Origin: Desulfobacteraceae bacterium
GTDB taxonomy: Bacteria; Desulfobacterota; Desulfobacteria; Desulfobacterales; JAIFKL01
Reading direction: 5' to 3'
DNA: 42,927 nt
Assembly (NCBI GenBank): GCA_020049595.1
Contig: JAIFKL010000125.1
Location: 1-42,927 of the forward strand
Below the pieces are notes generated by a model. That model was not told the origin of the DNA. It saw nothing but the letters and a program-made list of their open reading frames with translations, and did no database searches. Shown in pieces: positions 501 to 31,320 of the stretch (position 1 is its first letter; every line of letters starts with the position of its first letter). The translations under genes and the position numbers were made by a program.

Positions 501-545
501 TTCTCAATTCTCAATTCTCACTTCTCACTTCTCAATTTTCACTTA
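501..545. repeat. Heptamer array, single arm (TTCTCAA/TTCTCAC x6 on the + strand)
   Basis: Directly abuts the TAA stop of the minus-strand OMF gene. On the gene strand it reads TGAGAAT/TGAGAAG. Confidence 0.9.
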
Positions 546-1946
546 CTCCCCCCATCCGCCGCCGAGGGCTTTATACAATCGCACCAGATCGGCAGTAGTA
601 TTTCCCTTGCTTTCCGCCAACTGATCCTCAAGATTCAGCAGGGAACGCTGGGCTTCCAATACCGTGTCAAAATCCGCCAGACCGGCGGAATATTTATTTC
701 CGGCTAATTTGGAAGCTTCCTGCGCGGCGCGGGTTGCAGCCGTCAGGGTCTGTCCGCGCTGCTGTTCCGCAGCGTATGCCGTGAGCGCATTTTCTACTTC
801 CTCCAAAGCATTGAGAACCGATGATTCATAGCGGAGCAGCGCCTGTTCCGCTAACGCTGATTGCACTTCAATATTTTGTCGGATCGCGCCGGCGTCAAAA
901 ATGCGCCAACTCAGACGGGGACCGAAACTGTGGCTTCTGCTGTCCCCAGAAAACAGATCGCCTGATGAAAGCGCCTCCAATCCCACAGAGCCGTTCAAAG
1001 TGAATTTCGGGTAAAGCTCGGATTCAGCAACGCCGATGCGCGCGGTCTGCGCCGCCAGATTCCGTTCCGCCTGACGAATATCAGGTCTGCGCCGCAAAAG
1101 GTCAGCGGGAATCCCCACAGCGATGTTCACGGAAGGGACAGGCACGGGCTTGTTTTCTTTCAGAAGCGTGTGCAGCGCGCCCGGAGATTCTCCCAGCAGC
1201 ACGGCAAGACGGTTTTCAGCCGCTTCCAGACCGGCGTGCAGCGTGGGAATCCGGGAGCGCGTCTGTTCCAGATTGTATCGCGCCTGCTGAACAGCGAGTT
1301 CATCGCCCAGACCTGCCTGATAGCGCGAGCGGACAAGTCCGTGAGTTTCCAGTTGTGCGGCAAGATTGGCATTTGCCACCGAGATACGGTTCTGATAGAT
1401 GCGGACATCAATGTAGTTGAGTGCGACTTCTGCCAGAAGCGAGACCTGCACATCCCGCAAATTTTCCTGCTCGGATTCCAGATTTGCCTGCGCCGCTTCA
1501 ATGGAACGGCTGACGCCTCCGAAAATATCCAATTCCCAACTCGCATCCAAGCCGATGGTATAGGATTTATTCTCCGAGCCGTTGCTGTGCCGCGTGGTGA
1601 CAGCACCGGAAGCATCGGCACTCGGAAATCTGTCCGCATCGCTGATGCCTCTGCGGGCGCGTGCTTCCCGAATCCGGGCGAATGCGTTTTTAATATCGGA
1701 ATTGCCTGTGACAGCACGCTCAATCAGCCCGGATAAAACAGGATCATTGAGGGTTTTCCACCATTGCGCCAGCAATTCTGCTGTTTCGGTGCCGGAGGAC
1801 AGCGTGCTGTTCCATGCGGTCGGGGTTTGGGTTTGAGGTCGGGCATAATTCGGACCCACGACTGCACATCCGGCAATGCCGATGATTGTCGCAAAGCATA
1901 TCAGGACAAAAGCTGAATGCGGAAAGGATTTATTGAAAGGATTCAT
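543..1946 (-). CDS. Efflux outer-membrane factor lipoprotein (NodT family)
   Basis: 467-aa ORF. Lipoprotein signal ends IAGC. WWKTLNDPVLSGLIERAV motif and two OEP-type repeats. No MFP or RND pump gene lies beside it in the window. Confidence 0.9.
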   Translation of the reverse strand: MNPFNKSFPHSAFVLICFATIIGIAGCAVVGPNYARPQTQTPTAWNSTLSSGTETAELLAQWWKTLNDPVLSGLIERAVTGNSDIKNAFARIREARARRGISDADRFPSADASGAVTTRHSNGSENKSYTIGLDASWELDIFGGVSRSIEAAQANLESEQENLRDVQVSLLAEVALNYIDVRIYQNRISVANANLAAQLETHGLVRSRYQAGLGDELAVQQARYNLEQTRSRIPTLHAGLEAAENRLAVLLGESPGALHTLLKENKPVPVPSVNIAVGIPADLLRRRPDIRQAERNLAAQTARIGVAESELYPKFTLNGSVGLEALSSGDLFSGDSRSHSFGPRLSWRIFDAGAIRQNIEVQSALAEQALLRYESSVLNALEEVENALTAYAAEQQRGQTLTAATRAAQEASKLAGNKYSAGLADFDTVLEAQRSLLNLEDQLAESKGNTTADLVRLYKALGGGWGE

Positions 1947-2043
1947 GGGAGTTCCATATTGAAATATGAAAACAGAGATTGGAGAAACTAAGTTTTTTCA
2001 AAAAAACTTAGTTTCTTTTTCATTCTTCAATTCATGCTGTTTT

Positions 2044-2376
2044 TCATTTCGCCGACTGATTATAGAAAGGGACTTCATCGGCAGTGACAACGCAGTCTAT
2101 GTTCTTATCCAAGCGGGTAAAGCGTTCAATGATAACGCCGCCGGCAGAAGCGGTGTTTGCCGTATTGCCGGAGAGAGGAGTGGTGTCAACTTCCTGAAAA
2201 GAATTTCCGGTATTACCTGCATTCGCATTCGTGCCAGTGCTGTTTTCAATTCCCTGAACAACATTTCCCCCGGTTTCGGCAGGACTTGCCTGCTGGGCAA
2301 AACTGCAAGCCGTGAAAACAAACAGCACTGCCAATACAATCGCCGCAGCCGTCTTGAACCTCATGTCAAATTTCAT
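2044..2376 (-). CDS. Small secreted protein with an EF-hand-like Ca-binding loop
   Basis: Start moved from ORF-track 2424 to ATG 2376, which has GGAGGAG just upstream. Signal peptide AAIVLAVLFVFTACSFAQQ is paralogous to that of 2854-3348. C-terminal DKNIDCVVTADE loop. Confidence 0.6.
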   Translation of the reverse strand: MKFDMRFKTAAAIVLAVLFVFTACSFAQQASPAETGGNVVQGIENSTGTNANAGNTGNSFQEVDTTPLSGNTANTASAGGVIIERFTRLDKNIDCVVTADEVPFYNQSAK

Positions 2377-2507
2377 GCGCTTTCTCCTCCTTAAAAAAAT
2401 AAAAAATTGAAACTTGTCAGACAATCAACTTACAGGCAAATCTTATCACCAAAATTAAAAAATTGAAAGTTTTTCAGATAAGTTTTAACTTTTTTCTCTC
2501 TATCTAT

Positions 2508-2732
2508 CCGGAGTGCTGAAATCTGTTCTTAGCCCGGGCGCAGTGAAATTTCAGCTGTAGAACGGGTTTGAAACCCGTTTTACTGTGCTGTGCCGAAATG
2601 AGCGAAGCGACCGAATTTTATAAAATGGGTCAGCTGTAGAACGGGTTTGAAACCCGTTTTACTGTGCTGTGCCGAAATGAGCGAAGCGAATTTTAGCATT
2701 CTCAGCCTGGGCGCAGTGAAATTTTAGCATTT
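2508..2732. repeat. Composite word element containing a 79-bp-period tandem duplication
   Basis: CAGCTGTAGAACGGGTTTGAAACCCGTTTTACTGTGCTGTGCCGAAATGAGCGAAGCGA occurs at 2552-2610 and 2631-2689. It is flanked by GGAGTGCTGAAAT and AATTTTAGCA words. Confidence 0.85.
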
Positions 2733-2853
2733 GATTCAATGGGTTTGTCAAACATTGCGTGTTTGCGGGAATTATCTGAGAAAGGCGGAATGCAGGTTTC
2801 CCCTTTGAATAGGCGGAAACACTGCATCCGTGATTCAATCCGAATGATTTCGG

Positions 2854-4281: not shown

Positions 4282-4397
4282 TTTTTCGCCACGAATGGAC
4301 ACGAATTTATCACGAATAAAAGAACGCTAATTTATTCAGAATGATTAATTCGTGCTTTTTAATTTGTGATAAATCCGTGTCCATTCGTGGCGAAAAA
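4282..4397. repeat. 32-bp inverted repeat (CACGAAT word family) just upstream of the kinase gene
   Basis: TTTTTCGCCACGAATGGACACGAATTTATCAC (4282-4313) against GTGATAAATCCGTGTCCATTCGTGGCGAAAAA (4366-4397), with one mismatch. Confidence 0.85.
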
Positions 4398-6829: not shown

Positions 6830-6938
6830 TCCGTTCCGTTCATAACGACATCGGAAAGTTAAATTGACAAAGTAAAATTAATTTATATTAAATTCACCTT
6901 ATGATTGACATTTTCTATCAATTCGGGCAAATTATTGG

Positions 6939-7008
6939 GAAGTGAGAATTGAGAATTGAGAAATCAACACTTCCTGTTTCTCAATTCTCAATTCTCAATT
7001 CTCAATTT
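6939..7008. repeat. Inverted heptamer pair (hairpin)
   Basis: (TGAGAAT)n at 6939-6963, loop TCAACACTTCCTG, (ATTCTCA)n at 6977-7008. Lies 20 nt upstream of the PrkA-like start. Confidence 0.9.
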
Positions 7009-9364: not shown

Positions 9365-9503
9365 AGGATTCTCAGGACGCAGAAGATGAAGAATGGGAAT
9401 ATTTTATGCTGACGCCGCCTTAGTCCTGAGAATCCTTATAAAAAAAGGTCAGGGGTTCGGGGTCAGAGGTCAGGCGAACCCCTGACCCCTAACCACTGAC
9501 CCT
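9365..9503. repeat. Two hairpin words
   Basis: AGGATTCTCAGGAC (9365-9378) / GTCCTGAGAATCCT (9423-9436). GGTCAGGGGTTCG ... CGAACCCCTGACC (9447-9487) with further GGTCAG repeats. Confidence 0.8.
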
Positions 9504-9513
9504 TAATAACTAT

Positions 9514-10686: not shown

Positions 10687-10876
10687 CCACGAAAATGCGA
10701 AAACCTATTTTTATGTTTTGGCGAAAAGCACGAAATATTTTTAACCATGAATTTTTTTTCGTGTTTTTCATAAATTTCGTGCTTTCGTGGTAAAAAAGAG
10801 AACCACGAAAACACGAAAGCAGCGAAAAGCACGAAAAATAATTTCGTGGCTTTCATTAATTTCGTGCTTTCGTGGT
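10685..10876. repeat. CACGAAA-word palindromes
   Basis: AACCACGAAA...TTTCGTGCTTTCGTGGT appears twice. The element starts at the stop codon of 9514-10686. Confidence 0.8.
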
Positions 10877-10899
10877 AAAAAAAGCAGAAAGGAAAAAAA

Positions 10900-11373: not shown

Positions 11374-11790
11374 GTGAGAAGTGATACCAATTCGCTATCA
11401 AAAACAGTGTTCTCCGTATCTGTTTTAAGCCGGGCGCTTTTCAGGCGGTTTAAGCGATCTCCGTATCTGTTTTAAGCTTCGGCGCTTTTTAAGCGCCCGG
11501 CTAAAAATAGATGCGGTTTATCTGTTTTCAGCCGGGTGTTTTCAGCCGGGGGCGCTTTACGATCTGTTTTCCGTAAAACCGCTTTTCAAGCGGTTTAAGC
11601 GATTTGAAAAATCGCTTTACGATCTGAACTCTGTAAAACCGCTTTTTAAGCGGTTTAAGCGGTTTATCTGTTTTCAGCCGGGTGTTTTCAGCCGGGGGCG
11701 CTTTACGATCTGAATCTGTTTTAAGCCGGGCCGATCTTTGAAAGCGAATTGGTATCAGTCTGAGCCTGTCAAAGACTCAATTCTCACTTA
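11371..11790. repeat. About 420-bp nested composite palindromic element
   Basis: Outer single heptamer units (TAAGTGAGAAGTGA / TCAATTCTCACTTA). Next layer TACCAATTCGCTATCAAA (11385-11403) / TTTGAAAGCGAATTGGTA (11737-11754). The interior holds GTAAAACCGCTTTTNAAGCGGTTTAAGCG hairpins and a roughly 145-bp-period direct repeat (11515-11566 and 11660-11711). Confidence 0.85.
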
Positions 11791-12778: not shown

Positions 12779-12844
12779 AACAAGTTGCAGGTAACAGGTT
12801 GCAAGATAACCTGTTACATGTTACCTGTTACATGTAACTTGTTT
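12779..12844. repeat. CAGGT-word palindrome between the siaB-like and siaC-like genes
   Basis: AACAAGTTGCAGGTAACAGGT ... ACCTGTTACATGTAACTTGTT. Confidence 0.8.
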
Positions 12845-13233
12845 CATTTTTGAATCTGAATCAGGTTAAATTCCAACGATGCCAAATCTTCTTTAAAGTC
12901 CTCTCCGTTTTCCATGGCCATATCATTTTCCTGATCGTAATACCAGTTGACAACAATATGCTTTCCTTCGGAAACAGCCTTGTCAAGCAAATCAAACAGT
13001 CCCATGAATGTTTTTGAGCTGTTGCTGTTGAAATACACCATTTCGATATTCACCGTAACTTTCCGCTCTTGTGACAATTGTGCCAGATACGATCTTATCC
13101 ATTCCGATACCGGTCTGTAAAAATCGGCAAGATTTTCAGGATAGGACTCCCCCCTGATCTCCAGTATGTCTTTATCCGCATCAAATCGGATATACGGCGT
13201 GTATTTTGTTGCTTCAATAATCAGATTGTTCAT
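12844..13233 (-). CDS. SiaC-family regulatory phosphoprotein (DUF1987), paralogue 1
   Basis: MNNLIIEATKYTPYIRFD...LEIRGESYPEN...YFNSNSSK...VNWYYD; clear paralogue of 11792-12178. Confidence 0.85.
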   Translation of the reverse strand: MNNLIIEATKYTPYIRFDADKDILEIRGESYPENLADFYRPVSEWIRSYLAQLSQERKVTVNIEMVYFNSNSSKTFMGLFDLLDKAVSEGKHIVVNWYYDQENDMAMENGEDFKEDLASLEFNLIQIQK

Positions 13234-13244: not shown

Positions 13245-13428
13245 ATTGAGAATTGAGAATTGAGAATTGAGAATTGAGAAAGGTTTCTCGCATCTATTTT
13301 TAGCCTTGGCGCAGAGATTGCAAAGTTTTTTTTATAAAAAGAGTTTTTCTTTGCGCCCTTTGCGCCAAGGCTAAAAATAGATGCGAGACATTATTTAGAA
13401 TTGACAATTCTCAATTCTCAATTCTCAA
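13245..13428. repeat. Three-layer nested palindrome capped by heptamer arms
   Basis: (TGAGAAT)5 at 13245-13281 / (ATTCTCA)3 at 13408-13428. Inner inverted repeat 13283-13312 / 13362-13389 (GGCTAAAAATAGATGCGAG word). Core CTTTGCGCCC word with a TTTTTATAAAAA centre. Confidence 0.9.
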
Positions 13429-15689
13429 AATCCGAACCCGATAACGGTCATATCGTCTCTTTGTTCTTCATCGCCTTTCCATGCCATATATGCTTCTCTT
13501 ATGAGCCTCTTCTGTTCATCAAAAGATTTTTCCCGCATTTCTTTCAGCAGGGAACGAAAGCGTTTGTTTCCGAAAGGAAGATGTCCAGGTCCCCCGGGCT
13601 GATCCGTGATGCCGTCTGTTGCCATATAAAATGACATGCCCTCCTGAATCGGAATCTGATGATTGCTGAAATTGAAATCAGGATTTGCGTCTTTATATCC
13701 GATGCTATGCCTGTCGCCTCTGATAATCCTGAGCGTATCCCCCGACGAGGTATATGCCAGCGCGGTTTTTGCGCCTGCAAAGGTCAGGATTCCGGTTTTC
13801 ACATTCATAAAAACGATGCCCGCATCCATACCGTCATCAGAACCGGCAGTTTTTTCATCAGAAGAATATAAAGAGGTTTTGACCGCAGCATTCAGAGATT
13901 TCAATATTTGCGAGGGATCATTGTAATAATCTTTCTGAATGATTTCTTTAAAAGCGGTTCCGGCAAGCATGGTCATCAGCGCGCCCGGAATGCCGTGACC
14001 CGTACAGTCTATCAGCGCCATCAGCCAGCCTTCCGGAAATTCCTCAAAGAAATATATGTCGCCGCCCACAATATACTTGGGTTCGTCTATGATGAAACAG
14101 TGCTTCAGACACCTGTTTATCGCGGCTTCGGAGGGCAGAAGCGAGCGCTGGATGCGTTCAGCGTAGCGGATATTTTCCAGAATATGCTTGTTGGCATATT
14201 CCACCTGTTCAAGACTTGCCCGCAGTTCCCCGGTTCTTTCTTCCACAATTTCTTCCATCATCTGTGTGGCTTCTTCCTGCGCTGCAAAAGCCTCATGCCG
14301 GACTTTCAATATTTTCTCATAAGCCGCCAATTTTTCTTTGCGTTCAGCATTGATTCGGTCTGCCAGCCCCAGCCCCAGCAGAATGACTAACATCGCGGAA
14401 CCGATCTGCATGACATAAGCTGTTAAAAGATTGCTTGGCAAAATGCCGAAAGATTTCAAAGCGTAAAAAATCGCCCCGATGCCGAAGCAGCACCATGCAA
14501 TCATAAAATATTTGGCAACACGATGCCCCGTTTTCAGACAGAAAAGCCCCGTCAGCAGCACTGCCCCCACTAACGGCATGATACATATCACCGCTATTTT
14601 CACGCTCAGACTGTAACTGCTCAGAATTAAGGAAAACACGGCGCTTGCAGCCGCAGCAGTTGAAAAAATGTTAAGGAGACTGTCCATGCGGGGCATGGCG
14701 ATTTCGGTTTTCAGAAAAGCCCGGGTAAACTGTGCAATCCATAAGCCTGTGAATGCGATAAAAAAAGGAATGCTGCGATTGAACCACCAGGGCAGTTCTG
14801 ACCACAGATATTGGTATCCTTCACCGCTCAGGGACAGTTGAAAAAGCGTGTAACTGATGATGTACAGAATGTAAAAAAGATAGCTTCTGTCCCGGATCGA
14901 AACAAACAGAAAGAAATTGTAACATGCCATTGCCAGCATGATGCCGTAATAAATTCCGGACACAAACTGTTCTGCCGTCACTTTTTCGGCAAAAGCTGCC
15001 GGGGACCAGAGCGTAAAGGAAAATTCCATTGTTCCGGCAGTTCTGATGCGGAAATACAGGGTTTGCGGAGTTCCATGCCTCATGTTTACCCGGAATACAA
15101 AATGATGATGTCTGATATCCCGGTGCCGGAAAGGCAGCATATCTCCGCCGCGGCTGAGAACAAACCTTTTTTGCCATTCCTGTTTTCCGTTATGAACGGG
15201 GAACCAGCATTCCACATCATCTAAAAGCGGATAGTGTTCTTCCAGAAACCATTCTTTTTTTTCCGTTGTAAAACGACCCGGCTTAAAATCGTCCAACTTG
15301 TTTTGCTCATCTGTAAAACGAGTTTTCAACTCGTTTTGATAATCCAGCGTCAATCTGATCCAGTAAACTGAATCTGTATAGCCGAAATTCTGCACCTGCG
15401 AACCGCTTTCGACAAATTTTTCGGAAAATTCATCCGAGGCCACATCATTGACAGACCATTGACCGGCTTTATCTTCCAGATATGCGATGTGATGCCCCAG
15501 CGGATATTTATCCGTGAAGTCATTCAGAACTGCCGGCTTTTGCGCTCCGACAACTGACACAGGCGTCAAAAAAATCAGAAAAAGACAGAGGAAAAGAGAA
15601 GTGAGAAATGAGAAGTGAGAAATGCCGTTTTTTAATAAGACGGCTCTTTCCCTTTTCCCGCTTCTCAATTCCCGCTTTTCAATTCTCAT
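13425..15689 (-). CDS. SiaA-type PP2C (SpoIIE) phosphatase with 7TMR-DISM extracellular and 7-TM input domains
   Basis: Periplasmic 7TMR-DISMED2-like region, seven predicted TM helices, a coiled coil, then PP2C motifs (GGDIYFF, IDCTGHGIPGA, DDGMDA, ATDGITDQ, DDMTVIGFGF). ATG 15689 is chosen; GTG 15722 is an alternative. The stop TGA is the first unit of a heptamer array. Confidence 0.85.
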   Translation of the reverse strand: MRIEKRELRSGKRERAVLLKNGISHFSFLTSLFLCLFLIFLTPVSVVGAQKPAVLNDFTDKYPLGHHIAYLEDKAGQWSVNDVASDEFSEKFVESGSQVQNFGYTDSVYWIRLTLDYQNELKTRFTDEQNKLDDFKPGRFTTEKKEWFLEEHYPLLDDVECWFPVHNGKQEWQKRFVLSRGGDMLPFRHRDIRHHHFVFRVNMRHGTPQTLYFRIRTAGTMEFSFTLWSPAAFAEKVTAEQFVSGIYYGIMLAMACYNFFLFVSIRDRSYLFYILYIISYTLFQLSLSGEGYQYLWSELPWWFNRSIPFFIAFTGLWIAQFTRAFLKTEIAMPRMDSLLNIFSTAAAASAVFSLILSSYSLSVKIAVICIMPLVGAVLLTGLFCLKTGHRVAKYFMIAWCCFGIGAIFYALKSFGILPSNLLTAYVMQIGSAMLVILLGLGLADRINAERKEKLAAYEKILKVRHEAFAAQEEATQMMEEIVEERTGELRASLEQVEYANKHILENIRYAERIQRSLLPSEAAINRCLKHCFIIDEPKYIVGGDIYFFEEFPEGWLMALIDCTGHGIPGALMTMLAGTAFKEIIQKDYYNDPSQILKSLNAAVKTSLYSSDEKTAGSDDGMDAGIVFMNVKTGILTFAGAKTALAYTSSGDTLRIIRGDRHSIGYKDANPDFNFSNHQIPIQEGMSFYMATDGITDQPGGPGHLPFGNKRFRSLLKEMREKSFDEQKRLIREAYMAWKGDEEQRDDMTVIGFGF

Positions 15690-15740
15690 TTTCCGGTGAT
15701 TTCCGCACTTCTCACTTCTCACTTCTCACTTCTCACTTTC
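15596..15740. repeat. Heptamer hairpin element lying entirely within coding sequence
   Basis: (GAGAAGT/GAGAAAT) arm at 15596-15623. Centre GCCGTTTTTTAATAAGACGGC at 15624-15644. Degenerate then perfect (CTTCTCA)n up to 15740. Confidence 0.85.
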
Positions 15741-17504: not shown

Positions 17505-17556
17505 AGAATTGAGAATTGAGAATTGAGAATTGAGAAATAATTCTCAATTCTCAATT
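17505..17556. repeat. Inverted heptamer pair with a 3-nt loop
   Basis: (TGAGAAT)4 followed by TAA and (ATTCTCA)2, between the yicC stop and the remA start. Confidence 0.9.
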
Positions 17557-18436: not shown

Positions 18437-18490
18437 TTTAAGACCTTGATTTATAGGATTAAAAGATTTTCATGATTAAAAATGTGCTGT

Positions 18491-18530
18491 CACTTCTCAC
18501 TTCTCACTTCTCAATTCTCAATTCTCAATT
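18491..18530. repeat. Heptamer array, single arm (CTTCTCA x3 then ATTCTCA x3 on the + strand)
   Basis: Contains the stop and last codons of the minus-strand gene 18511-19041. Confidence 0.9.
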
Positions 18531-19041
18531 CCCTGACATACCTGTCACGCACCTGTTTCAGCCAGACCCGCATTTTTTTGTCGGCATAATCCGGATAGGT
18601 CCAGGGTAAGGTCTGAAATCCGCCTTTTGTATAAATCAGGGTGAGGTCTGCATAAATTCCTTTGCCGATATAGATTCTGTGGGTAAAATTTTTGCCGCTT
18701 GCAAGGACAAACCGCTCGTGCAGCATGTATCCGGGATCAATATTTATATTCCGCATACCGTCTTTCGAAAAATTTTTTTCAATCTCGTTGGTGATGATTT
18801 TTATATCTGCCAAAGCCGTCTGTTCTGTCAGGGTCTGAAAGGTAAGCATCCGCCGGAAAAGGGGACTTCCTGTTTCACGTTCATAATAATCGGTATAGTC
18901 AAATGCCATCCATGAACTTATCATGTCAACCGGACCGAAATTTTCAGCCAGCAGCTTTGCAGCCGGTTCCAAGAGATTCTTTTCTTTCATAAAAAGCCCG
19001 ATTACCAACTTTGCGGGCTTGGGCAGTTGGGGAATACTCAT
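18511..19041 (-). CDS. Conserved hypothetical protein (possibly DUF4416 family)
   Basis: 176-aa ORF. The family call is from memory of the KLVIGLF...FDYTDYYE pattern. The last residues RELRIEN and the stop are encoded by a heptamer array. Confidence 0.7.
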   Translation of the reverse strand: MSIPQLPKPAKLVIGLFMKEKNLLEPAAKLLAENFGPVDMISSWMAFDYTDYYERETGSPLFRRMLTFQTLTEQTALADIKIITNEIEKNFSKDGMRNINIDPGYMLHERFVLASGKNFTHRIYIGKGIYADLTLIYTKGGFQTLPWTYPDYADKKMRVWLKQVRDRYVRELRIEN

Positions 19042-20785: not shown

Positions 20786-21669
20786 AAAGCGAATTTGTTG
20801 AAAGTACATCAGTAAAAATCGCTGTGGCTTTTTTACGTAGAACAGGTTTGGATTATTTATATAAAAGCTTAGATTATGCTTTAACTGTAAATAATGCGAA
20901 AGTTGAATTTATTGTTGGTTTAGATTTTAAAACTACTGACGCAGAAGCATTAACCGCTTTAAATGAAATAAAAAGTAACTATACAAATTTTGAATTTTAT
21001 TGTTTTGGAGATAAAAGAGATAATCATAATGATTTAATATTTCATCCTAAAATATATATGTTTCATACAGAGCTTTCAAAAGGAACAAAGTATAGCTCTG
21101 TTGTCGGTTCTTCAAATTTCACAGGTGGTGGTTTAACTACAAATTTTGAAGTAAATACCATTTTCAGAGAATACAAACCTATATATTATAATCAATTAAG
21201 TGCTATTTATGATGAAATAAAATATACTGATAGTATCTTTCAGCCTTCAAAAAATTACATAAATAAATATAAAAATATAAAAGAAGAATTAGATAAATCA
21301 GTAAAAAAAATAATTGATATTGATGTTAAAGAAGAACTTATTGAATTAAAACAAGAAGAATTAAACTTACCCGGAACAATTCCTTCGATAAACTTGATGA
21401 TTATTAAATTTATTAAAGAAAAAAATAAGCAAGGTTTAGAATTTGTTTCTTTAAAAGATATTTATATTGAACTTGAAAATCAAATTAAACAAAGAAATCT
21501 TGAAGGCAAATATAAATTAGATACTTTCAGAAATACAATCAGGGGTGAGTTAAATACAAATGAAATAAATAGCGGACACAAAAACAATAAAAAATTATTT
21601 ATTCGTTCAAATGATAAAAATGCTTTTTATAAACTATCAGAAAATGGTATAAATTATAAAGGAAGATAA
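20728..21669 (+). CDS. PLD-family (HKD) nuclease, putative restriction endonuclease, with a C-terminal winged-helix-like domain
   Basis: Single HxK...GSxN motif (HPKIYMFH...VVGSSNFT), as in Nuc/BfiI-type nucleases. Lies adjacent to the methyltransferase and is AT-rich. Confidence 0.75.
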   Translation: MQPKIQILSNTNFALADVLKSEFVESTSVKIAVAFLRRTGLDYLYKSLDYALTVNNAKVEFIVGLDFKTTDAEALTALNEIKSNYTNFEFYCFGDKRDNHNDLIFHPKIYMFHTELSKGTKYSSVVGSSNFTGGGLTTNFEVNTIFREYKPIYYNQLSAIYDEIKYTDSIFQPSKNYINKYKNIKEELDKSVKKIIDIDVKEELIELKQEELNLPGTIPSINLMIIKFIKEKNKQGLEFVSLKDIYIELENQIKQRNLEGKYKLDTFRNTIRGELNTNEINSGHKNNKKLFIRSNDKNAFYKLSENGINYKGR

Positions 21670-25400: not shown

Positions 25401-26122
25401 TCACCGAAGCCGCCAGCGGCAAAGATGCGCTGGATGCCCTCCTGAACAGACAATTCGACTGTATGGTGCTGGACCTGGGGCTGCCGGATATGACCGGTTT
25501 TGAACTGCTCAGTATGCTGAAAAATGAAAAAGGAATCAATATCCCGCCGGTTATTGTCTATACAGGGAAAGACCTTAGCCGTGAAGAGGAAGAGCAACTG
25601 CGGGGCTATGCGGAGGCGATCATTGTCAAAGGTGTGAAATCCGAAGAACGCCTGCTGGATGAGACGACCCTGTTTCTGCATCGGATTGTCAGCAATATGC
25701 CGCAGAAAGAGCAGAAAGTTATATGCAACCTTCAGGATAAAGACAGCGTTTTCAAAAACAAGAGAATTCTTTTGGCAGACGACGACATGCGGAATGTCTT
25801 TGCCATGTCCAAAATTCTGCGGGAAAAAGGAATGGAGATAGTTAAAGCGGAAGACGGCGCGAAAGCATTGAAAGTGCTGGAACAGGAGCCGGGCATTCAT
25901 CTGGTGCTGATGGATATTATGATGCCGATCATGGACGGATATGAAACCATGAAAAAAATCCGGGAGCAGGAGCGATTTGCGAAACTGCCGATTATTGCCT
26001 TAACCGCAAAGGCAATGAAAGGCGACAGAGAAAAATGTATCGAATCGGGCGCAAGCGATTATCTGGCAAAACCCGTTGACATGGAAAGACTGCTGTCAAT
26101 GATGCGGGTGTGGATGTATTAA
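22418..26122 (+). CDS. Hybrid sensor histidine kinase (4HB_MCP-like sensor, HAMP, GAF, coiled coil, HisKA, HATPase, repeat-derived linker, three receiver domains)
   Basis: H-box ANMSHELRTPLNS. HATPase motifs DTGIGI and GGTGLGLSI. Three receivers (ILDIRLPGMDG, VLDLGLPDMTG, LMDIMMPIMDG). No Hpt domain. Confidence 0.9.
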   Translation: MRFKNLKLATKQGLAFGFILVIMAGVTVFSLLKMSALKDEIDRVNTKRLPGVIAVSEINFNTSEYRINEMQHALTYYGYKMREQEQMMLGLKTKIEKNQEVYQPLITSPEEQTLYSEFQEKWGRYLEMHEQFMKLSRDSKDEEALTLLNEEAYKLFRDFSANLEGLVKLNKEASFEAARRAEETYRSARTVTTVLLAMTVLMSTLITLVLVRTITIPIRQLERAAKSVAEGNVNVSLDIQTQEEIGNLARSFNRMTDSLREAKQENEKQDWFKSGQNELNEKMRGDQDVQTLARNVITCLSKYLGAQIGALYLVSDGENGENTEMKLAGTYAFAKRKSLGDIIRIGEGLAGQAAFEKEIISVTDVPQDYIRIASAIGDTHPRNIMVSPFLYEGRLVGVVELGTFAEFTDREMEFLKYAMENIAIGFNSARSRDKIAFLLKESQRQGSELKIQQEELRATNEELAEQRDALRLSEAQLKSQQEELQAANEELEEKTQYLEKQQIEITEKNVALEIARNDIEKKAKELEVTSKYKSEFLANMSHELRTPLNSMLILARSLADNKEENLSEDQSESARIIYKSGNDLLKLINEILDLSKIEAGKMSVNIEKVLLQDVADSLHANFKHVIADKGLTLAIRLDEHIPEYMETDSQRLEQIIKNFMSNAIKFTEKGEITFSVHTPEPETDLSRSGLNRQDAIAFSVSDTGIGIPEDKLLDIFEAFQQVDGSTSRKYGGTGLGLSISRELAKLLGGEIQLKSEMGKGSTFTLYLPGSSKVGSLLPTKQKTAEVQASCKAGSVRLSAAVEPAETHAEVKLPAKQKTTEVQASGKVGSKLPTLRKITAPAPSPGDRCILIIEEDADFVKVLSAQCSQKGFKAVVCASGEEGLQLAEKQRHEAIILDIRLPGMDGWAVLERLKANPETRHIPVHIISAEEVSLDALKKGAVGFLTKPAEKEALDAAFRKLESFIEKNIKDLLVVEDDENLRKSIRKLIGNGDVKITEAASGKDALDALLNRQFDCMVLDLGLPDMTGFELLSMLKNEKGINIPPVIVYTGKDLSREEEEQLRGYAEAIIVKGVKSEERLLDETTLFLHRIVSNMPQKEQKVICNLQDKDSVFKNKRILLADDDMRNVFAMSKILREKGMEIVKAEDGAKALKVLEQEPGIHLVLMDIMMPIMDGYETMKKIREQERFAKLPIIALTAKAMKGDREKCIESGASDYLAKPVDMERLLSMMRVWMY
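24729..24920. repeat. Word-type palindromic/direct-repeat element inside the hybrid kinase ORF
   Basis: GGTGGGCAGC-TT-GCTGCCCACC (24733-24754). GGTGGGCAGC-AA-GCTGCCCACC (24894-24915). Direct repeat CAAACAGAAAACCRCAGAGGTTCAGGCTTCGKGTAAGGYGGGCAGC occurs twice. GGCGGGCAGC / GCTGCCCGCC inverted repeat. This is the same GTAAGGYGGGCA word seen at 3562-3590. Confidence 0.8.
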
Positions 26123-26189
26123 TTGAGAATTGAGAATTGAGAATTAAACACTGTCTATTTCTCAATTCTCAATTCTCAATTCTCAATTT
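26120..26189. repeat. Inverted heptamer pair (hairpin) between the hybrid kinase gene and cheR
   Basis: The TAA stop overlaps the first unit. (TGAGAAT)3, loop AAACACTGTCTA, (ATTCTCA)4. The cheR ATG follows 2 nt later. Confidence 0.9.
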
Positions 26190-26191
26190 TT

Positions 26192-27016
26192 ATGACTGAC
26201 AACGAAATCGAAAAAATAGAGATAGACCTTTTTCTTGAAGCGGTTTTCCGGCGCTACGGCTATGATTTCACGCATTATGCCAAAGCCTCTATCCGGAGAA
26301 GGGTTCGGAATTTTCTGCAAAAAACGGGCTACACCCGCGTCAGCGAAATGATCCCGGAAGTTTTGTATAACGAATCGTTTTTTGCAAATCTGGTCTTTGA
26401 TTTTTCCGTAACTGTTACAGAAATGTTCCGTGACCCGGACTTCTTTCTGTCGGTGAGGAATATGATATTTCCCTATCTCAGAACCTATCCGTTTATCAAA
26501 ATCTGGCAGGCCGGCTGTGCAACCGGTGAAGAAGTTTACAGCCTTGCCATTTTGATGACAGAAGCGGGACTTTATGAAAAAAGCACTGTTTTTGCAACGG
26601 ATTTCAATGATCCCGCGCTGAAAAAAGCAAAAGAAGGTATTTATCCGATAAAAAATGTAAAAGACTTTACGGCAAATTATCAGAAAGCCGGCGGAAACTT
26701 ATCTTTCGCCAAATATTATCATGCACAGTATGATTCTGTTATTATGGATAAATATTTAAAACAGCGCATCACGTTTGCGAATCATAATTTGGCCACGGAC
26801 GGGGTATTCGGAGAAATGCATCTGATTCTCTGCCGCAATGTGCTGATTTATTTTGACAGAGAACTTCAAAACCGGGTGCTTTCTCTGTTTAAAGACAGTC
26901 TGATACACAAGGGTTTTCTCTGCCTCGGAACCAAAGAAAGCCTTCAATTTTCAGATGTGTGTGATGATTTCAAACTGATTGACGCAAAGAATAAAATCTA
27001 TCAGAAAAAGTTTTAG
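26192..27016 (+). CDS. cheR: CheR-type protein-glutamate O-methyltransferase
   Basis: IWQAGCATGEEVYSLAI SAM motif and LILCRNVLIYFD motif. Confidence 0.9.
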   Translation: MTDNEIEKIEIDLFLEAVFRRYGYDFTHYAKASIRRRVRNFLQKTGYTRVSEMIPEVLYNESFFANLVFDFSVTVTEMFRDPDFFLSVRNMIFPYLRTYPFIKIWQAGCATGEEVYSLAILMTEAGLYEKSTVFATDFNDPALKKAKEGIYPIKNVKDFTANYQKAGGNLSFAKYYHAQYDSVIMDKYLKQRITFANHNLATDGVFGEMHLILCRNVLIYFDRELQNRVLSLFKDSLIHKGFLCLGTKESLQFSDVCDDFKLIDAKNKIYQKKF

Positions 27017-29637: not shown

Positions 29638-30075
29638 ATGGAAAAATCAGTTTGCAGAGAGTTCAAACCCGGACGCCGCTTTGTCGGGCGTCTGCCTCAC
29701 GGCAAAGACCTGATTCAGTCTGTCGAAAATTTCTGCAAAGAAAAAGCGATTGTTATGGCAACATTTTCCCTTATCGGCGCTGTCAGTTCGGCAACTGTCG
29801 GCGCTTACGACCAGAAACAGCAGGTTTACGTTACGTTCAGGGAAAACTCACCCCTTGAAATCGTAATCTGCGCGGGCAATGTTTCAATAAAAGACGGAAA
29901 CCCCGTTGTTCATGCCCACATTCTCCTCGGCGACGAACAGGGAAAAACCGTCGGCGGCCATCTGTTTTCGGAAACGCTTCTCTTTGCCGGAGAAATCGAG
30001 ATTCAGGAACTGATCGGAAATCCGTTGGAAAGGACATCAGACGCTGTAACAGGTTTGATGTTATGGAAATTTTAG
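29638..30075 (+). CDS. PPC/DUF296 domain protein
   Basis: GRLPHGKDLIQSVENFCKE...GAVS...HAHILLGDEQGKTVGGHL pattern of the PPC (DUF296) fold. Confidence 0.7.
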   Translation: MEKSVCREFKPGRRFVGRLPHGKDLIQSVENFCKEKAIVMATFSLIGAVSSATVGAYDQKQQVYVTFRENSPLEIVICAGNVSIKDGNPVVHAHILLGDEQGKTVGGHLFSETLLFAGEIEIQELIGNPLERTSDAVTGLMLWKF

Positions 30076-30079
30076 AAGA

Positions 30080-30162
30080 GTTGCAGGTTACAGGTTGCAG
30101 GTTGCAGGTAGCAGGTTACATGCTACATGCAACTTGTAACCTGCTACCTGCTACCTGCTACC
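30080..30162. repeat. CAGGT-word palindrome upstream of ilvE
   Basis: GTTGCAGGTTACAGGTTGCAGGTTGCAGGTAGCAGGTTACATG ... CATGCAACTTGTAACCTGCTACCTGCTACCTGCTACC. Confidence 0.85.
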
Positions 30163-30189
30163 AATTGACAATGAAGGAGAGATAAAAAA

Positions 30190-31254
30190 ATGCAAATCAC
30201 GATTACAAAAGCAAAAGACCTCAAACCCAAGCCGGATGAATCCAATCTCGGTTTCGGAACATTTTTTACAGATCACATGCTGCTGATGGATTACAATCCG
30301 GACAAGGGATGGCATCTGCCCCGTATTGAACCGTTTTCCCCTTTTGAAATGTCCCCTGCGACCATGGTTCTGCACTACGGACAGGCAGTATTTGAAGGGC
30401 TGAAGGCATATCGGACTGCTGCCGGCAAAATACAGCTTTTTCGGCCCAAAGCCAATTTTGCGCGCATGAACCGTTCCTGTGAGATGCTTTGCATTCCCCC
30501 GATTGACGAATCGCTTCTCACGGCTTCGCTGAAAGACCTGCTGAAGCTTGAAAAAGACTGGGTTCCCAGAGTCCCGGGCACCTCTCTTTATATACGTCCC
30601 ACGATTATTTCAACCGATCCCTATCTCGGAGTGCGGGCGTCGAAAACCTATCGTTATTTTGTCATTCTCTGTCCTGTGGGCGCATATTATGCCGCAGGCT
30701 TCAACCCTGTGAAAATATGGGTGACAAAAAATTATGTCAGGGCAGTTCGCGGGGGCATCGGCGAGGCAAAAACCCCGGCAAACTATGCGGCAAGCCTGTA
30801 CGCCGGAGAAAGGGCAGGCAAAAACGGTTATGCTCAGGTTTTGTGGTTGGACGGCGTGGAACAGAAATATGTGGAAGAAGTGGGTTCCATGAATATCTTT
30901 TTTGTCATTGACAATGAACTCGTCACGCCAATGCTCAACGGCAGCATTCTTCCGGGCGTTACACGGGATTCCGTCATTGCGCTGGCAAAACACTGGAAGC
31001 TGAAAGTTTCGGAGCGGAAAATCAGCATTGACGAAGTGATGAATGCTCATGACGCGGGAAAACTTCAGGAAGTTTTCGGATCCGGCACCGCGGCGGTGAT
31101 TTCGCCGGTAGGCGAGATGAAATACGGGGACCGGATCATCCAAATCGGCGGCGGCAAGGTCGGTCCCGTAGCGAACAAATTTTTCAAATCTATTCAGGAT
31201 ATTCAGTACGGCAAAGCTGAAGATCCCATGGGATGGATTGAGCCGGTTTGTTAG
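30190..31254 (+). CDS. ilvE: Branched-chain amino acid aminotransferase
   Basis: 354 aa. LGFGTFFTDHM, HYGQAVFEGLKAYR, AKTPANYAASL and EVGSMNIFF motifs. Confidence 0.9.
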   Translation: MQITITKAKDLKPKPDESNLGFGTFFTDHMLLMDYNPDKGWHLPRIEPFSPFEMSPATMVLHYGQAVFEGLKAYRTAAGKIQLFRPKANFARMNRSCEMLCIPPIDESLLTASLKDLLKLEKDWVPRVPGTSLYIRPTIISTDPYLGVRASKTYRYFVILCPVGAYYAAGFNPVKIWVTKNYVRAVRGGIGEAKTPANYAASLYAGERAGKNGYAQVLWLDGVEQKYVEEVGSMNIFFVIDNELVTPMLNGSILPGVTRDSVIALAKHWKLKVSERKISIDEVMNAHDAGKLQEVFGSGTAAVISPVGEMKYGDRIIQIGGGKVGPVANKFFKSIQDIQYGKAEDPMGWIEPVC

Positions 31255-31320
31255 AATTGAGAATTGAGAATTGAGAAATACCGTTTTTAATAAGATGGCT
31301 CAATTCTCAATTCTCACTTA
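31253..31320. repeat. Inverted heptamer pair with the conserved centre CCGTTTTTAATAAGATGGC
   Basis: It abuts the ilvE TAG stop. The centre is nearly identical to that of 15624-15644. Confidence 0.9.

Follow-up and report, generated by a model that had tools for sequence, protein, structure and literature searches.

TGAGAAT heptamer arrays form polar intercistronic hairpins in a Desulfobacteraceae bacterium and are a variant of a known repeat class

Introduction

In filamentous cyanobacteria, 7-bp STRR repeats form intercistronic hairpins, as between hupS and hupL (PMC2670836). The TAACTGA repeats are intergenic and oriented, carry stops in all three frames and overlap the stop codons of upstream genes (MacGregor, 2015; PMC4679880). 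Here we analyzed a 42,927-nt contig from a Desulfobacteraceae bacterium (JAIFKL010000125.1, hereafter the window), in which a first-pass annotation had noticed arrays of TGAGAAT or TGAGAAG (together TGAGAAK) at gene boundaries and read them as insulators for which it knew of no description.

Results

Both TRF and a pattern scan detected arrays at all eight loci where they had been reported (Table 1). TGAGAAK occurs 63 times in the window, far above the 16.5 ± 4 copies expected and a count reached in 0 of 100 shuffles, and 45 of the 63 copies fall within arrays, which leaves the singletons at chance level. The single units described as capping the composite element at 11371-11790 were found as well. 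Array bases are 88% intergenic (366 of 417); coding sequence makes up 81% of the window. Period 7 is the dominant class among all tandem repeats, with 19 such arrays in the window, 16 and 4 in relatives L121 and L123, and 6 in D. magnum (L022). The contig of another relative, L126, terminates within the yicC-remA hairpin, which indicates that heptamer repeats break short-read assemblies and could point to an assembly artifact. However, independent assemblies from JGI, ENA, NCBI and Logan (L120, L121=L122, L123=L124 and L126) contain the same arrays, as does the complete chromosome of D. magnum, and we give an artifactual origin practically no credence.

Six of the loci are inverted pairs with the invariable order (TGAGAAT)n…(ATTCTCA)n, with TGAGAAK on the + strand in the left arm and on the - strand in the right arm, and their predicted folding energies range from -22 to -63 kcal/mol. 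The other two are single arms, and both read TGAGAAK on the same strand as the gene terminating there, as first reported. All six pairs separate co-directional genes, including one pair within the conserved yicC-remA-gmk cluster, and convergent gene ends have none; therefore, translation arrives from one side only and not, as had been proposed, from either side.

Table 1. Positions of heptamer arrays and associated features in the window
Feature	Position	Strand	Description
OMF single-arm array	501..541	-	~6 units, (TGAGAAT)2(TGAGAAG)2 + degenerate units; begins 1 nt past OMF stop (543-545); unstructured as RNA (dG 0)
RR>PrkA hairpin (6934-7007), 5' arm	6934..6962	+	~3 units + GGGAAG; 232 nt downstream of RR stop; hairpin -41.9 kcal/mol, z -8.0
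RR>PrkA hairpin, 3' arm	6978..7007	-	4.3 units, ATTCTCA on +; ends 20 nt before PrkA ATG (7028)
GGTCAGG / CCCCTGA hairpin	9446..9504		Between PrkA and hyp390; TGA in 3' arm; also in L123
Composite (11371-11790), left cap	11375..11381	+	Single TGAGAAG immediately 3' of rubrerythrin stop; L123 counterpart of composite is a plain 62-nt hairpin with identical caps
Composite, right cap	11780..11786	-	Single TGAGAAT past SiaC1 stop
GTWACAG/GTTGCAG family hairpin	12785..12847		Fills SiaC2>DUF6272 spacer
SiaA>SiaC2 hairpin (13245-13428), arm	13245..13280	+	5.1 units; 3' arm on sense (-) strand; ends 11 nt before SiaC2 ATG
Nested inner palindrome	13281..13404		CATCTATTTTTAGCCTTGGCGC... with CTTTGCGCC 9-mers, in loop of SiaA>SiaC2 heptamer hairpin; also in L123
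SiaA>SiaC2 hairpin, arm	13405..13428	-	3.4 units; first TGA is SiaA-like stop codon
rlmB>SiaA hairpin (15591-15738), arm	15591..15624	+	GAGAAG/GAGAAA units; sense-strand 3' arm; ends 21 nt before SiaA TTG (15569); hairpin -60.8 kcal/mol, z -7.5
Core small hairpin	15624..15644		GCCGTTTTTTAATAAGACGGC in rlmB>SiaA loop; terminator-like; recurs at 31280-31298 and in L123 convergent spacer
rlmB>SiaA hairpin, arm	15706..15738	-	(TGAGAAG)4; rlmB runs 5 codons into arm (..KVRSEK-stop)
yicC>remA hairpin (17505-17556), arm	17505..17536	+	4.6 units; sense-strand 3' arm; ends 15 nt before remA ATG; SD outside stem; hairpin -27.7 kcal/mol, z -4.9
yicC>remA hairpin, arm	17539..17556	-	2.6 units; overlaps yicC TAA
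DUF4416 single-arm array	18490..18531	-	(TGAGAAT)2(TGAGAAG)3; DUF4416 ends inside (..RELRIEN-stop); 53 nt upstream of yicC ATG
HK>cheR hairpin (26121-26188), 5' arm	26121..26145	+	3.6 units; overlaps hybrid kinase TAA; hairpin 25/25 bp paired, -31.8 kcal/mol, z -8.0
HK>cheR hairpin, 3' arm	26159..26188	-	4.3 units; ends 3 nt before cheR ATG; no SD
GTTGCAG / CTGCTAC family hairpin	30080..30162		Between PCC and ilvE; neither arm stop-rich
ilvE>mlaD hairpin (31253-31316), 5' arm	31253..31277	+	3.6 units; overlaps ilvE TAG; identical in L120; hairpin -33.1 kcal/mol, z -6.5
ilvE>mlaD hairpin, 3' arm	31299..31316	-	2.6 units; ends 36 nt before MlaD ATG (31353)

The arrays had been placed exactly on gene boundaries, in or abutting the stops of at least eight genes. 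The first, often degenerate, unit holds those of the OMF, SiaA-like, yicC, hybrid kinase and ilvE genes, the rlmB and DUF4416 ORFs run 5-6 codons into their arrays to give two array-encoded tails, the rubrerythrin stop adjoins one single unit, and the 5' arm begins inside the upstream stop codon in five of the six pairs. However, this abutment is partly automatic for an all-frame-stop sequence, because any ORF entering a stop-rich arm must end there, and the left arm at 6934 is separated from its nearest upstream stop by 232 nt. A comparison with arrays inside ORFs on the stop-rich strand, put forward as a refutation, is vacuous since such ORFs cannot exist. The claim that starts follow shortly after arrays was correct, with gaps of 3 nt (cheR) to 36 nt (MlaD). 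An ORF at 13425-15722 that seemed to start in an array was an artifact of ORF listing, and orthologue comparison puts its start at TTG 15569. That the stop-rich arm closes ORFs is borne out by two 1-nt indels in relatives, each of which lengthens an ORF by only 5 codons: the rlmB tail is REMMK-stop in L123 and REMMKVRSEK-stop in the window, and the SiaA tail is GFGF-stop in the window and GFGFLRIEN-stop in L121.

The arrays are polymorphic and turn over rapidly among relatives. At DUF4416>yicC, L126 (98.9% identical) has five TGAGAAG units and the window three, whereas all that L123 has is a degenerate proto-array of three units within the ORF tail, with no array past the stop. No target-site duplication was found on comparing L123 with the window at this site, where the array expanded in place and L123 shows the un-expanded form. 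The GTTGCAG hairpin at 30080-30162 differs in L120 (99.1% identical) by 8 substitutions and one additional unit within ~85 nt, with folding retained, whereas the remaining ~3.6 kb of the alignment has ~16 (25 mismatches over all 3,727 aligned bases). At ~88% identity, arrays are swapped for other families: the repeat in the yicC>remA spacer is TGAGAAT in the window, but TGAGAAG in L121 and of a CACGAAA type in L123, with none in D. ishimotonii, and in the HK>cheR spacer L121 has GGTAAGA/CCTCTGA where the window has TGAGAAT. The D. ishimotonii spacers that were compared are short, with no arrays found. Retained hairpin spacers are 80-83% identical, compared with 73-83% at flanking third codon positions, and array sequences that are not replaced drift at about the synonymous, near-neutral rate. 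The yicC>remA hairpin of L121 has one compensatory double change (T>G/A>C), which, together with the retention of hairpins through family replacement, could reflect selection for the stem rather than mutation pressure. In two species with hairpins of different families, the cheR start has no SD and is flush with the hairpin, which suggests functional coupling.

Other heptamers occupy equivalent spacers within the window. The hairpins at 9446-9504, 12785-12847 and 30080-30162 are stop-less or have TGA in the 3' arm, which weakens the stop property as a reason for siting. Left-arm units of the 12785-12847 hairpin, counted by eye, number ~4 in the window, 2 in L121 and 9 in L123 (TRF gives 5.1 copies in the window arm). 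Within the hybrid kinase, stop-free palindromic repeats have invaded a permissive coding linker.

Three arrays (13246, 17530 and 535) match sigma-70-type promoters in a consensus scan (TTGAGA-N17-GAGAAT; 9/12 matches, 17-nt spacer), a match found in only 32 of 2344 heptamer classes (1.4%) when arrayed. Arrays with at least four TGAGAAT units might then fire in the TGAGAAT direction, the upstream arm of a pair driving the downstream gene with a hairpin-free leader. However, the score is 0 for TGAGAAG arrays and for every other heptamer family, although these are found at equivalent sites, several arms fall short of the length needed (<4.1 units), transcription from the second arm would run antisense into the upstream gene, and the match is one post-hoc property of many examined, making promoter activity highly improbable.

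The TGAGAAT unit occurs in identical arrangement in at least eight phyla, ranging from GC-rich Acidobacteriota to gut Bacteroidales, a recurrence that may point to a more specific cause, for example horizontal spread or a common binding factor. Period-7 arrays number 345 in 841 kb from other phyla, 209 of them with non-TGAGAAT units, and no other period exceeds 36. Horizontal transfer between phyla, or small mobile elements of the MITE or REPIN type, would account for the recurrence in GC-rich genomes, and other repeats are nested within loops and a recombination tract is present in the window clade. Against such an origin, at DUF4416>yicC a degenerate proto-array expanded in situ and shows neither target-site duplication nor terminal repeats, arm lengths and loops differ between all loci, the window encodes no transposase or RAYT genes, and the viral contigs searched contain no matches. 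We therefore hold little belief in mobility.

The orientation rule for pairs proved real and general. The stop- and purine-rich arm is 5' in 6/6 window pairs, by 10:1 in a separate scan of 119 loci from other phyla, and by 32:3 among TGAGAAT-like pairs detected with TRF in other phyla; a reverse-order 3+3 pair was found once among 241 M metagenome records. Across phyla, all heptamer hairpins detected with TRF are purine-first by 50:9. The bias is 18:6 for non-TGAGAAT hairpins and 8:2 for those with equal stop content in both arms, and a stop filter alone cannot therefore explain it. Ordinary hairpins in the same DNA lean the same way but less strongly (67:46), and the orientation of single arms in other phyla is only weak (29 sense, 20 antisense). 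There is no G.U bias in favor of sense RNA (39 G.U pairs sense, 65 antisense).

Such strong polarity fits the selected bidirectional insulator first proposed, in which all-frame stops end translation, transcription next ends or is blocked at the long hairpin, and neighboring genes are insulated. The same is true of the 5' arms that start within upstream stops, the 9/13 co-directional cases in other phyla that start ≤13 nt from the upstream ORF end, the demonstrable use of back-up stops at rlmB and SiaA, and three loci where U/C-rich heptamer tails accompany a small terminator-like core hairpin; the bias of ordinary hairpins also resembles the A-tract/U-tract layout of bidirectional terminators. 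However, with co-directional pairs, strong termination would silence the downstream gene in yicC-remA-gmk and before the SD-less cheR. None of the arrays themselves passes a stem-plus-T-run terminator scan, and the hairpins are not canonical terminators. Stop-less heptamer hairpins fill equivalent spacers, the sequences are freely exchanged for others and drift neutrally, and D. ishimotonii does without arrays. An insulator role is thus unlikely.

Alternatively, the heptamers might bind a single-strand nucleic-acid-binding protein with a ~7 nt footprint, such as a cold-shock-type OB-fold or ribosomal protein S1, with the bound pyrimidine-rich arm opening or closing the hairpin to tune downstream translation or antitermination. 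MacGregor put this model forward for TAACTGA, a precedent that is a hypothesis only. The strict period of 7 in many families and phyla, the recurrence of TGAGAAT across phyla, the position of the pyrimidine-rich ATTCTCA arm 3-36 nt before start codons, and the SD-less cheR of two species are consistent with this model. However, at least five unrelated heptamers are interchangeable at the same spacers, which argues against sequence-specific recognition, no candidate protein in the window is tied to the arrays, and single arms elsewhere are only weakly oriented. We consider protein binding distinctly doubtful.

Discussion

We favor, at slightly better than even odds (roughly 55%), a reading in which the arrays are a fast-evolving heptanucleotide SSR family that grows by slippage, is placed and polarized by a purifying-selection filter, and acts, if at all, as generic stem-loops. 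Replication slippage would expand and contract arrays in situ from the stop-codon end of a gene, and a second, inverted arm would convert most of them to long palindromes. Upon transcription of the gene cluster, the palindromes would form 14-30 bp stem-loops that occupy the intercistronic spacer. Position and polarity would mainly be what purifying selection permits. Arrays could not persist in ORFs on the stop-rich strand, and an array touching the 3' end of a gene would be tolerated only with the stop-rich arm read first, because a slipped or frameshifted ORF is then closed within ~6 codons. The pyrimidine-rich arm, with neither a start codon nor an SD-like sequence, would be the arm tolerated beside the next gene's start. 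The likely effect is that of a 3'-exonuclease barrier, processing site or leaky terminator, with no sequence-specific signal.

The slippage and filter model is supported by the dominance of period 7, copy-number change between strains, growth in place, family replacement and the array-free spacers of D. ishimotonii, and by near-neutral drift, the lack of a G.U bias, ORF capping, the stop-free repeats in the kinase linker, and the STRR and TAACTGA precedents. The purine-first polarity of families that have no stop asymmetry argues against it, as do the recurrence of the identical heptamer across phyla, the retention of hairpins through family replacement, the one compensatory double change, and the SD-less, hairpin-flush start of cheR.

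The window arrays, which come from a sulfate reducer related to Desulfonema, belong to the same class as the cyanobacterial STRR, both forming heptamer hairpins between genes, and as the Beggiatoaceae TAACTGA repeats, both combining all-frame stops with orientation. The novelty first claimed for the orientation and all-frame stops was overstated, as these were published for TAACTGA (PMC4679880), and heptamer hairpins between genes were published for STRR (PMC2670836). What appears new is the TGAGAAT family itself, its presence in a Desulfonema relative, and the strong cross-phylum rule that the purine- and stop-rich arm is 5'. The TGAGAAT arrays are therefore a new family and variant of a known repeat class, and not a new kind of signal.

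Heptamer arrays and their placement in the window

Tandem Repeats Finder (TRF) and a pattern scan of the window confirmed period-7 TGAGAAT/TGAGAAG (TGAGAAK) arrays at every locus named in the first-pass annotation, with 2.6–6 copies and 81–100% matches across all loci; heptanucleotide LSSR/STRR repeats likewise consist of at least three head-to-tail copies. The window contains 63 copies of TGAGAAK compared with 16.5 ± 4 expected, a count that none of 100 shuffles reached. Because 45 of the 63 copies lie within arrays, isolated copies occur at chance level. The eight loci are dispersed over 43 kb and, as is usual for LSSR/STRR repeats, are mostly intergenic: 366 of the 417 array bases (88%) fall between genes in a window that is 81% coding and 19% intergenic. 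The G+C content of the arrays is 22–42%. When folded as RNA, the inverted pairs give about −28 to −61 kcal/mol, with z-scores from −4.9 to −8.0, and the single arms have no structure. Gene names from the first-pass annotation agree with Pfam scans. An Rfam search of the window returned no family matching any array. Its only matches are two copies of Acido-Lenti-1 (RF01687; gathering score 37) beside the single arm at 501–541, downstream of the OMF gene: one at 453–498 on the + strand (51.4 bits) and one at 257–302 on the − strand (41.7 bits), which together form a 46-nt inverted pair.

Heptamer arrays and hairpins in the window
Feature	Position	Remarks
Inverted pair	6934–7007	Left arm TGAGAAK on + strand, right arm on − strand
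Inverted pair	13245–13428	Left arm TGAGAAK on + strand, right arm on − strand
Inverted pair	15591–15738	Left arm TGAGAAK on + strand, right arm on − strand
Inverted pair	17505–17556	Left arm TGAGAAK on + strand, right arm on − strand
Inverted pair	26121–26188	Left arm TGAGAAK on + strand, right arm on − strand
Inverted pair	31253–31316	Left arm TGAGAAK on + strand, right arm on − strand
Single arm	501–541	Reads with gene strand
Single arm	18490–18531	Reads with gene strand; 53 nt before yicC
Single heptamer units	Both ends of 11371–11790 composite	Caps
GGTCAGG/CCCCTGA hairpin	9446–9504	Co-directional spacer
GTWACAG hairpin	12785–12847	Co-directional spacer
GTTGCAG/CTGCTAC hairpin	30080–30162	Co-directional spacer
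CACGAAA-type hairpins	4282–4397, 10690–10880	

Each of the six pairs is flanked by co-directional genes, one pair lying inside the yicC-remA-gmk cluster, and translation therefore arrives from one side only, which contradicts the earlier proposal that ribosomes meet the pairs from either side. The pair between the hybrid kinase gene and cheR occupies the entire 69-nt spacer ahead of cheR, which has no Shine-Dalgarno (SD) sequence either in the window (26188–26194, start ATG) or in the related contig L121 (4860–4900, start TTG). In both, a hairpin starts at the stop codon of the kinase gene and ends 3–13 nt ahead of the cheR start; it is built from a different heptamer family in each, and its geometry is compatible with translational coupling via hairpin melting. 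The sole convergent spacer of the window, between the rubrerythrin and SiaC1 genes, is a composite capped by single heptamer units. In the related contig L123 this spacer (8166–8227) is a simple 62-nt hairpin, GAATTGAG-core-CTCAATTC, touched by both stop codons. The composite at 11371–11790 has the caps seen in L123, and nested repeats (AAACCGCTT..AAGCGGTTT, TGTTTTCAGCCGGG and a duplication of 60 nt) take up the ~400 nt between them.

TGAGAAT is one of several heptamer hairpin families in the window. Hairpins of the other families likewise fill co-directional spacers, beginning 0–5 nt past the upstream stop, and are either stop-free or carry TGA in the 3′ arm; the GGTCAGG, GTWACAG and GTTGCAG hairpins have no stop-first property. 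In the CACGAAA/CACGAAT-type hairpins at 4282–4397, 10690–10880 and 16480–16550, the purine-rich arm is 5′. Period 7 is the dominant tandem-repeat class, with 19 arrays in the window, 16 in L121, four in L123 and six in the 8 kb of Desulfonema magnum examined; 21 kb of D. ishimotonii contains no such array. The clade-specific inner repeat was too degenerate to serve as a probe for further contigs.

Repeats also occur within coding sequence. In the interdomain linker of the hybrid kinase (24715–24935 in ORF 22418–26122), the coding sequence consists of a nested palindromic repeat with GGTGGGCAGCWWGCTGCCCACC arms that is stop-free, in frame, and folds at −109 kcal/mol (z −7.7), which indicates that stop-free repeat hairpins invade permissive coding linkers. 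The corresponding linker in L121 is non-homologous and contains heptamer arrays (L121 6073–6105). Copies of a GCTCCGCTCAGAATGAC-type repeat, which we take to resemble one in hypothetical proteins of many phyla, lie in the L121 gmk-rlmB spacer (11905–12200), and a relative of this repeat is translated as ..HPERSEGS..LRSAQNDS in the L121 kinase linker. Elsewhere in the window, a 159-nt tandem duplication at 35663–35960 (1.9 copies, 87% identical) lies at the 5′ end of an MTTB-like ORF (35624–37051). Between the DUF4416 and hybrid kinase genes, 19775–21669 holds a D12-class adenine methyltransferase gene and a PLD-family nuclease-like gene; both are missing from the corresponding position in L121, and the segment is probably an inserted restriction-modification-like module.

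Contact with stop codons

Each TGAGAAT unit brings in a TGA, and its length is not divisible by three, so any ORF that enters this strand closes within three units. This all-frame property holds as originally described: the forward strand shuts all three frames, the reverse strand is open, and ORF tails that run into an array end within six codons. Array-encoded tails are found in the DUF4416 protein (..RELRIEN*) and RlmB (..KVRSEK*), and the hybrid kinase, yicC, ilvE, SiaA-like and OMF genes all have their stop within the first unit, which is often degenerate. Two indels in relatives show the arrays capping frameshifted ORFs. RlmB ends in REMMK* in L123 and in REMMKVRSEK* in the window and L121, owing to a 1-nt insertion (AAATGA to AAAGTGA), and SiaA ends in GFGF* in the window and L123 and in GFGFLRIEN* in L121 (TTTTGA to TTTTTGA). 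An ORF that seems to start inside the arm at 15706–15738 is spurious, as orthologues place the start at TTG 15569.

The statement that arrays sit exactly on gene boundaries survives only in part. ORF ends do contact the arrays, but this contact follows automatically once an array grows up to, or into, the 3′ end of a gene, and for the pair beginning at 6934 the closest preceding stop is 232 nt away.

Arm polarity across phyla

The polarity of the arms is the strongest and most general result. It is identical in six of six window pairs, with TGAGAAK on the + strand at the left and on the − strand at the right, and the two single arms, which complete the eight loci, both read with the gene strand. 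A scan for (TGAGAAT)3 with one genome per species matched more than 119 contigs and placed the array in Cyanobacteria, Acidobacteriota, Bacteroidota, Planctomycetota, Chloroflexota, Actinomycetota and others. Among these cross-phylum loci, TGAGAAT pairs within 200 nt had the window order in ten cases and the reversed order in one, and TGAGAAT-like pairs detected by TRF favored the window order 32:3. In 241 million metagenome records, where reverse order alone was counted, a reversed pair of 3+3 units with a gap of ≤30 nt occurred once. This sole (ATTCTCA)3..(TGAGAAT)3 pair, at 310–368 of metagenome record L127, is part of a longer palindrome in GC-rich DNA and lies, by eye, ~40 nt past an apparent ORF stop. 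Neither arrangement of TGAGAAT pairs was found in viral contigs.

The cross-phylum loci also hold 209 arrays of other heptamers. Across all heptamer hairpins, the purine-rich arm is 5′ in 50 and 3′ in nine; for non-TGAGAAT hairpins the ratio is 18:6, or ~18:5 by family. Stops confined to one arm are less general, with nine non-TGAGAAT hairpins having them solely in the 5′ arm, compared with five for the opposite arrangement and ten ties. Ordinary perfect hairpins without tandem units are biased in the same direction in this DNA, though less strongly (67:46, compared with 39:12 for tandem-associated hairpins). Single arms in other phyla are weakly oriented with respect to co-directional genes (29 sense, 20 antisense), and 21 antisense arms lie inside predicted ORFs. 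In nine of 13 co-directional spacers from other phyla the hairpin begins ≤13 nt from the end of the upstream ORF, although gene calls there are crude.

Arrays in independent assemblies and close relatives

The nearest named relatives by YicC sequence are D. ishimotonii (65%) and the Desulfonema-like metagenome-assembled genomes HSG2, HSG8 and IS3 (67–70%), of which HSG2 and HSG8 appear to belong to a series of large filamentous bacteria obtained from sulphidic sediment. We compared the window with contigs L120 (JGI, 99.1% identical, with 25 mismatches in 3,727 aligned bases), L126 (ENA, 98.9% identical), L121 (the same as L122; 88% amino-acid identity in YicC), L123 (the same as L124; 86%) and L125 (D. 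ishimotonii). Paired TGAGAAT arrays are likewise present on the complete chromosome of D. magnum. Arrays do break assemblies, and contig L126 terminates inside a hairpin. The same or related arrays recur in independent assemblies and in the finished D. magnum chromosome, which leaves the possibility of an assembly artefact, raised in the first-pass annotation, with practically no weight.

Unit number differs even between near-identical strains. Three TGAGAAG units of the window correspond to five in L126, and the ~85-nt GTTGCAG hairpin of L120 has gained one unit and eight substitutions, compared with ~16 in the remaining ~3.6 kb of the alignment, yet still folds (−54.8 kcal/mol compared with −53 kcal/mol). 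Counted by eye, the left arm in the SiaC2-DUF6272 spacer has ~4, 2 and 9 units across three genomes. At ~88% nucleotide identity, spacers in relatives hold other heptamer families. In the yicC-remA spacer, the hairpin is built from TGAGAAT in the window and from TGAGAAG/CTTCTCA in L121, a compensatory T>G and A>C change; L123 has a CACGAAA-type hairpin there, and D. ishimotonii has nothing. Similarly, the TGAGAAT hairpin between the hybrid kinase and cheR genes is replaced by GGTAAGAGG/CCTCTGACC in L121. The array between DUF4416 and yicC is missing in L123, where the ORF tail contains a degenerate proto-array, GAATTGAGAAATGAAAAATGA, and comparison of L123 with the window reveals no target-site duplication. 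The L123 site is un-expanded, so the array grew in place. This history does not fit a MITE, and it makes a mobile or transferred element a quite unlikely source of the arrays.

Sequence constraint on the spacers was considered and rejected, since retained hairpin spacers are 80–83% identical, no better conserved than flanking third codon positions (73–83%). The sole highly similar spacer, SiaA-SiaC2, is 97% identical to that of L123 and lies within a recombination tract where genes are 95–98% identical. Identity between the window at 11792–15570 and L123 is mosaic, at 88–91% from DUF4416 to rlmB and 95–98% from SiaA to SiaC1 (third positions 92–96%), which indicates a recent recombination tract across the Sia-like cluster. 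Selection on the sense-strand RNA was likewise set aside, by what is a weak test: 24 hairpins have 39 G·U pairs in the sense orientation and 65 in the antisense, and the sense strand is the more stable in 11, the antisense in 13. Spacers in D. ishimotonii are short and array-free, with 10 nt between gmk and rlmB compared with 81–290 nt in the window clade. Copy-number change, family replacement, identity at the level of third codon positions, the lack of a G·U bias and the short D. ishimotonii spacers together point to mutation-driven, near-neutral elements that invaded compact spacers.

A proposed selective filter and alternative readings

We favor a model in which the arrays are shaped by a selective filter, to which we assign a probability of roughly 0.55. 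In this model, slippage would make and resize heptamer arrays, and a second, inverted arm would turn an array into a palindrome. Selection would eliminate arrays that truncate ORFs or lengthen them much, and at the 3′ end of an adjoining gene only the stop-first order would persist. The pyrimidine arm could be tolerated beside the following start because it contains no start codon and no SD-like sequence. The stem-loop RNAs, whose function we infer, would probably behave like other intercistronic hairpins, by blocking exonucleases, providing processing sites or terminating transcription leakily.

The filter model leaves unexplained the purine-first bias in families that lack stops, the identity of the unit across phyla, and the retention of hairpins at the same spacers despite family replacement, and these three observations keep functional models alive. 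The first-pass annotation interpreted the pairs as insulators that combine all-frame stops with a hairpin. Its observation of the arrays and the capping of all frames stand, the two-sided translation does not, and the strict boundary rule is partly automatic; we consider insulation possible, with low confidence. A heptamer-binding OB-fold protein, as suggested for TAACTGA repeats (PMC4679880), is unlikely. It is also conceivable, as a tentative proposal, that purine-first heptamer palindromes (stop-first in the case of TGAGAAT) form a cross-phylum intercistronic class, read by RNA polymerase, by the ribosome or by an RNA-binding OB-fold protein of ~7 nt, and actively couple or insulate neighboring genes. 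As part of that same tentative proposal, the recurrence of TGAGAAT from Desulfobacterota to Acidobacteriota, Bacteroidota and Cyanobacteria would be due to a conserved machine that reads it. The geometry at the hybrid kinase-cheR site suggests how coupling might work: a ribosome that terminates there would melt the 5′ arm and thereby expose an SD-less start at the 3′ base. Finally, arrays of at least four TGAGAAT units match a sigma-70-type promoter, TTGAGA-N17-GAGAAT, at nine of 12 positions (13246–13274, 17530–17558 and 535–507). Only 1.4% of heptamer classes give such a match when arrayed, but we regard promoter activity as very unlikely to account for the arrays.

If the polarity rule holds genome-wide, it provides a testable handle on why 7-nt repeats, and particular units, collect between genes in unrelated large filamentous bacteria, and would help decide between selection-shaped junk and regulatory stem-loops. 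For the annotation of Desulfonema-like genomes it is relevant that the arrays act as built-in back-up stop codons, break short-read assemblies, and produce false ORF starts and array-encoded ORF tails. The same arrays occur in D. magnum, for which both a culture and a complete genome exist, so the question can be addressed experimentally.

Comparison with known repeat systems

REP/BIME elements are extragenic, occurring past 3′ ends and inside operons, and their RNA stem-loops can protect upstream mRNA or attenuate transcription. The REP unit is a fixed imperfect palindrome of ~35 nt moved by RAYT transposases. TGAGAAT arrays share the extragenic position at 3′ ends and within operons but are slippage-prone tandem heptamers. 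They are not REPs or REPINs: arm length and loop differ at each locus, and a Pfam search of 30 of the 34 listed window ORFs found no Y1 transposase.

The pairs resemble intrinsic bidirectional terminators in that, on both strands, the 5′ side is purine/A-rich and the 3′ side pyrimidine/U-rich. At three loci, U/C-rich heptamers also follow a small core hairpin with a GC clamp. Unlike canonical terminators, in which a short G+C-rich stem with a 3–8-nt loop precedes a U-run, they have AT-rich stems of 14–30 bp, loops of up to 128 nt and no consistent U-run, and they lie inside co-directional clusters. A consensus terminator scan of the window reported no array itself, which together with the low G+C content argues against canonical intrinsic terminators. 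It reported only the core hairpin at 15624–15644, inside one loop; this core recurs at 31280–31298 and in L123.

The STRR units that Mazel described in 1990 are said to be other than TGAGAAT/G, and canonical STRR identity is rejected on the unit and on the host, which is related to Desulfonema and is not a heterocystous cyanobacterium. In filamentous cyanobacteria, 7-bp STRR repeats form hairpins between genes such as hupS and hupL, and roles in transcript stability or translational coupling have been proposed (PMC2670836). The two are alike in their 7-bp tandem units, dispersed intergenic location and intercistronic hairpins. They differ in taxon, and the available part of PMC2670836 describes neither a polarity rule, with the purine- or stop-rich arm 5′, nor contact with stop codons.

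Heptamers are the commonest class of long simple-sequence repeats, and slippage changes their copy number (Mrazek 2007, as summarized in PMC4679880). TGAGAAT arrays resemble such contingency loci in unit length and slippage-driven copy-number change. However, none lies in a promoter or in the 5′ coding part of a surface gene, and gain or loss of units therefore does not turn an ORF on or off; the position of all arrays at 3′ ends or in intercistronic spacers rules against phase variation. The Fur-family 7-1-7 operator, TGATAAT-N-ATTATCA (PMC11353095), resembles the arms in half-site and polarity; the arms, at 3–6 units long and 4 to 128 nt apart, do not match its 1-nt spacing.

The TAACTGA arrays described by MacGregor (2015, PMC4679880) are intergenic, oriented to the start codon, place stops in three forward frames and overlap upstream stops. 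Their reverse strand is translatable, and they are scattered among marine Beggiatoaceae, some Cyanobacteria and Bacteroidetes, with 169 direct sets and one inverted repeat in the BOGUAY genome (PMC4679880). TGAGAAT arrays share with them a tandem heptamer structure (2–6 units for TAACTGA) that is nearly all intergenic, forward stops in every frame with a translatable reverse strand, forward arrays that overlap the upstream stop, following genes that often have no SD, and large filamentous gliding hosts. The orientation of direct arrays to the next start may be shared as well, given that both single arms read with the gene strand, although most loci here are inverted pairs. TGAGAAT also agrees with the rotation TGATAAC at five of seven positions. 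In contrast, the unit differs at the other two positions even in this best rotation, with TAACTGA itself present in three cross-phylum loci; six of the eight loci here are inverted pairs forming long hairpins; TAACTGA arrays mostly stop ~1 nt short of the start codon, whereas TGAGAAT arrays contact the upstream stop tightly; and the host belongs to Desulfobacterota, a group not reported in PMC4679880. The open-access literature yielded no paper on TGAGAAT arrays or on heptamer repeats in Desulfonema. TGAGAAT arrays appear to be a new family within a repeat type that was already known, arranged in pairs with a fixed arm order and present in Desulfobacterota as well as in many other phyla.
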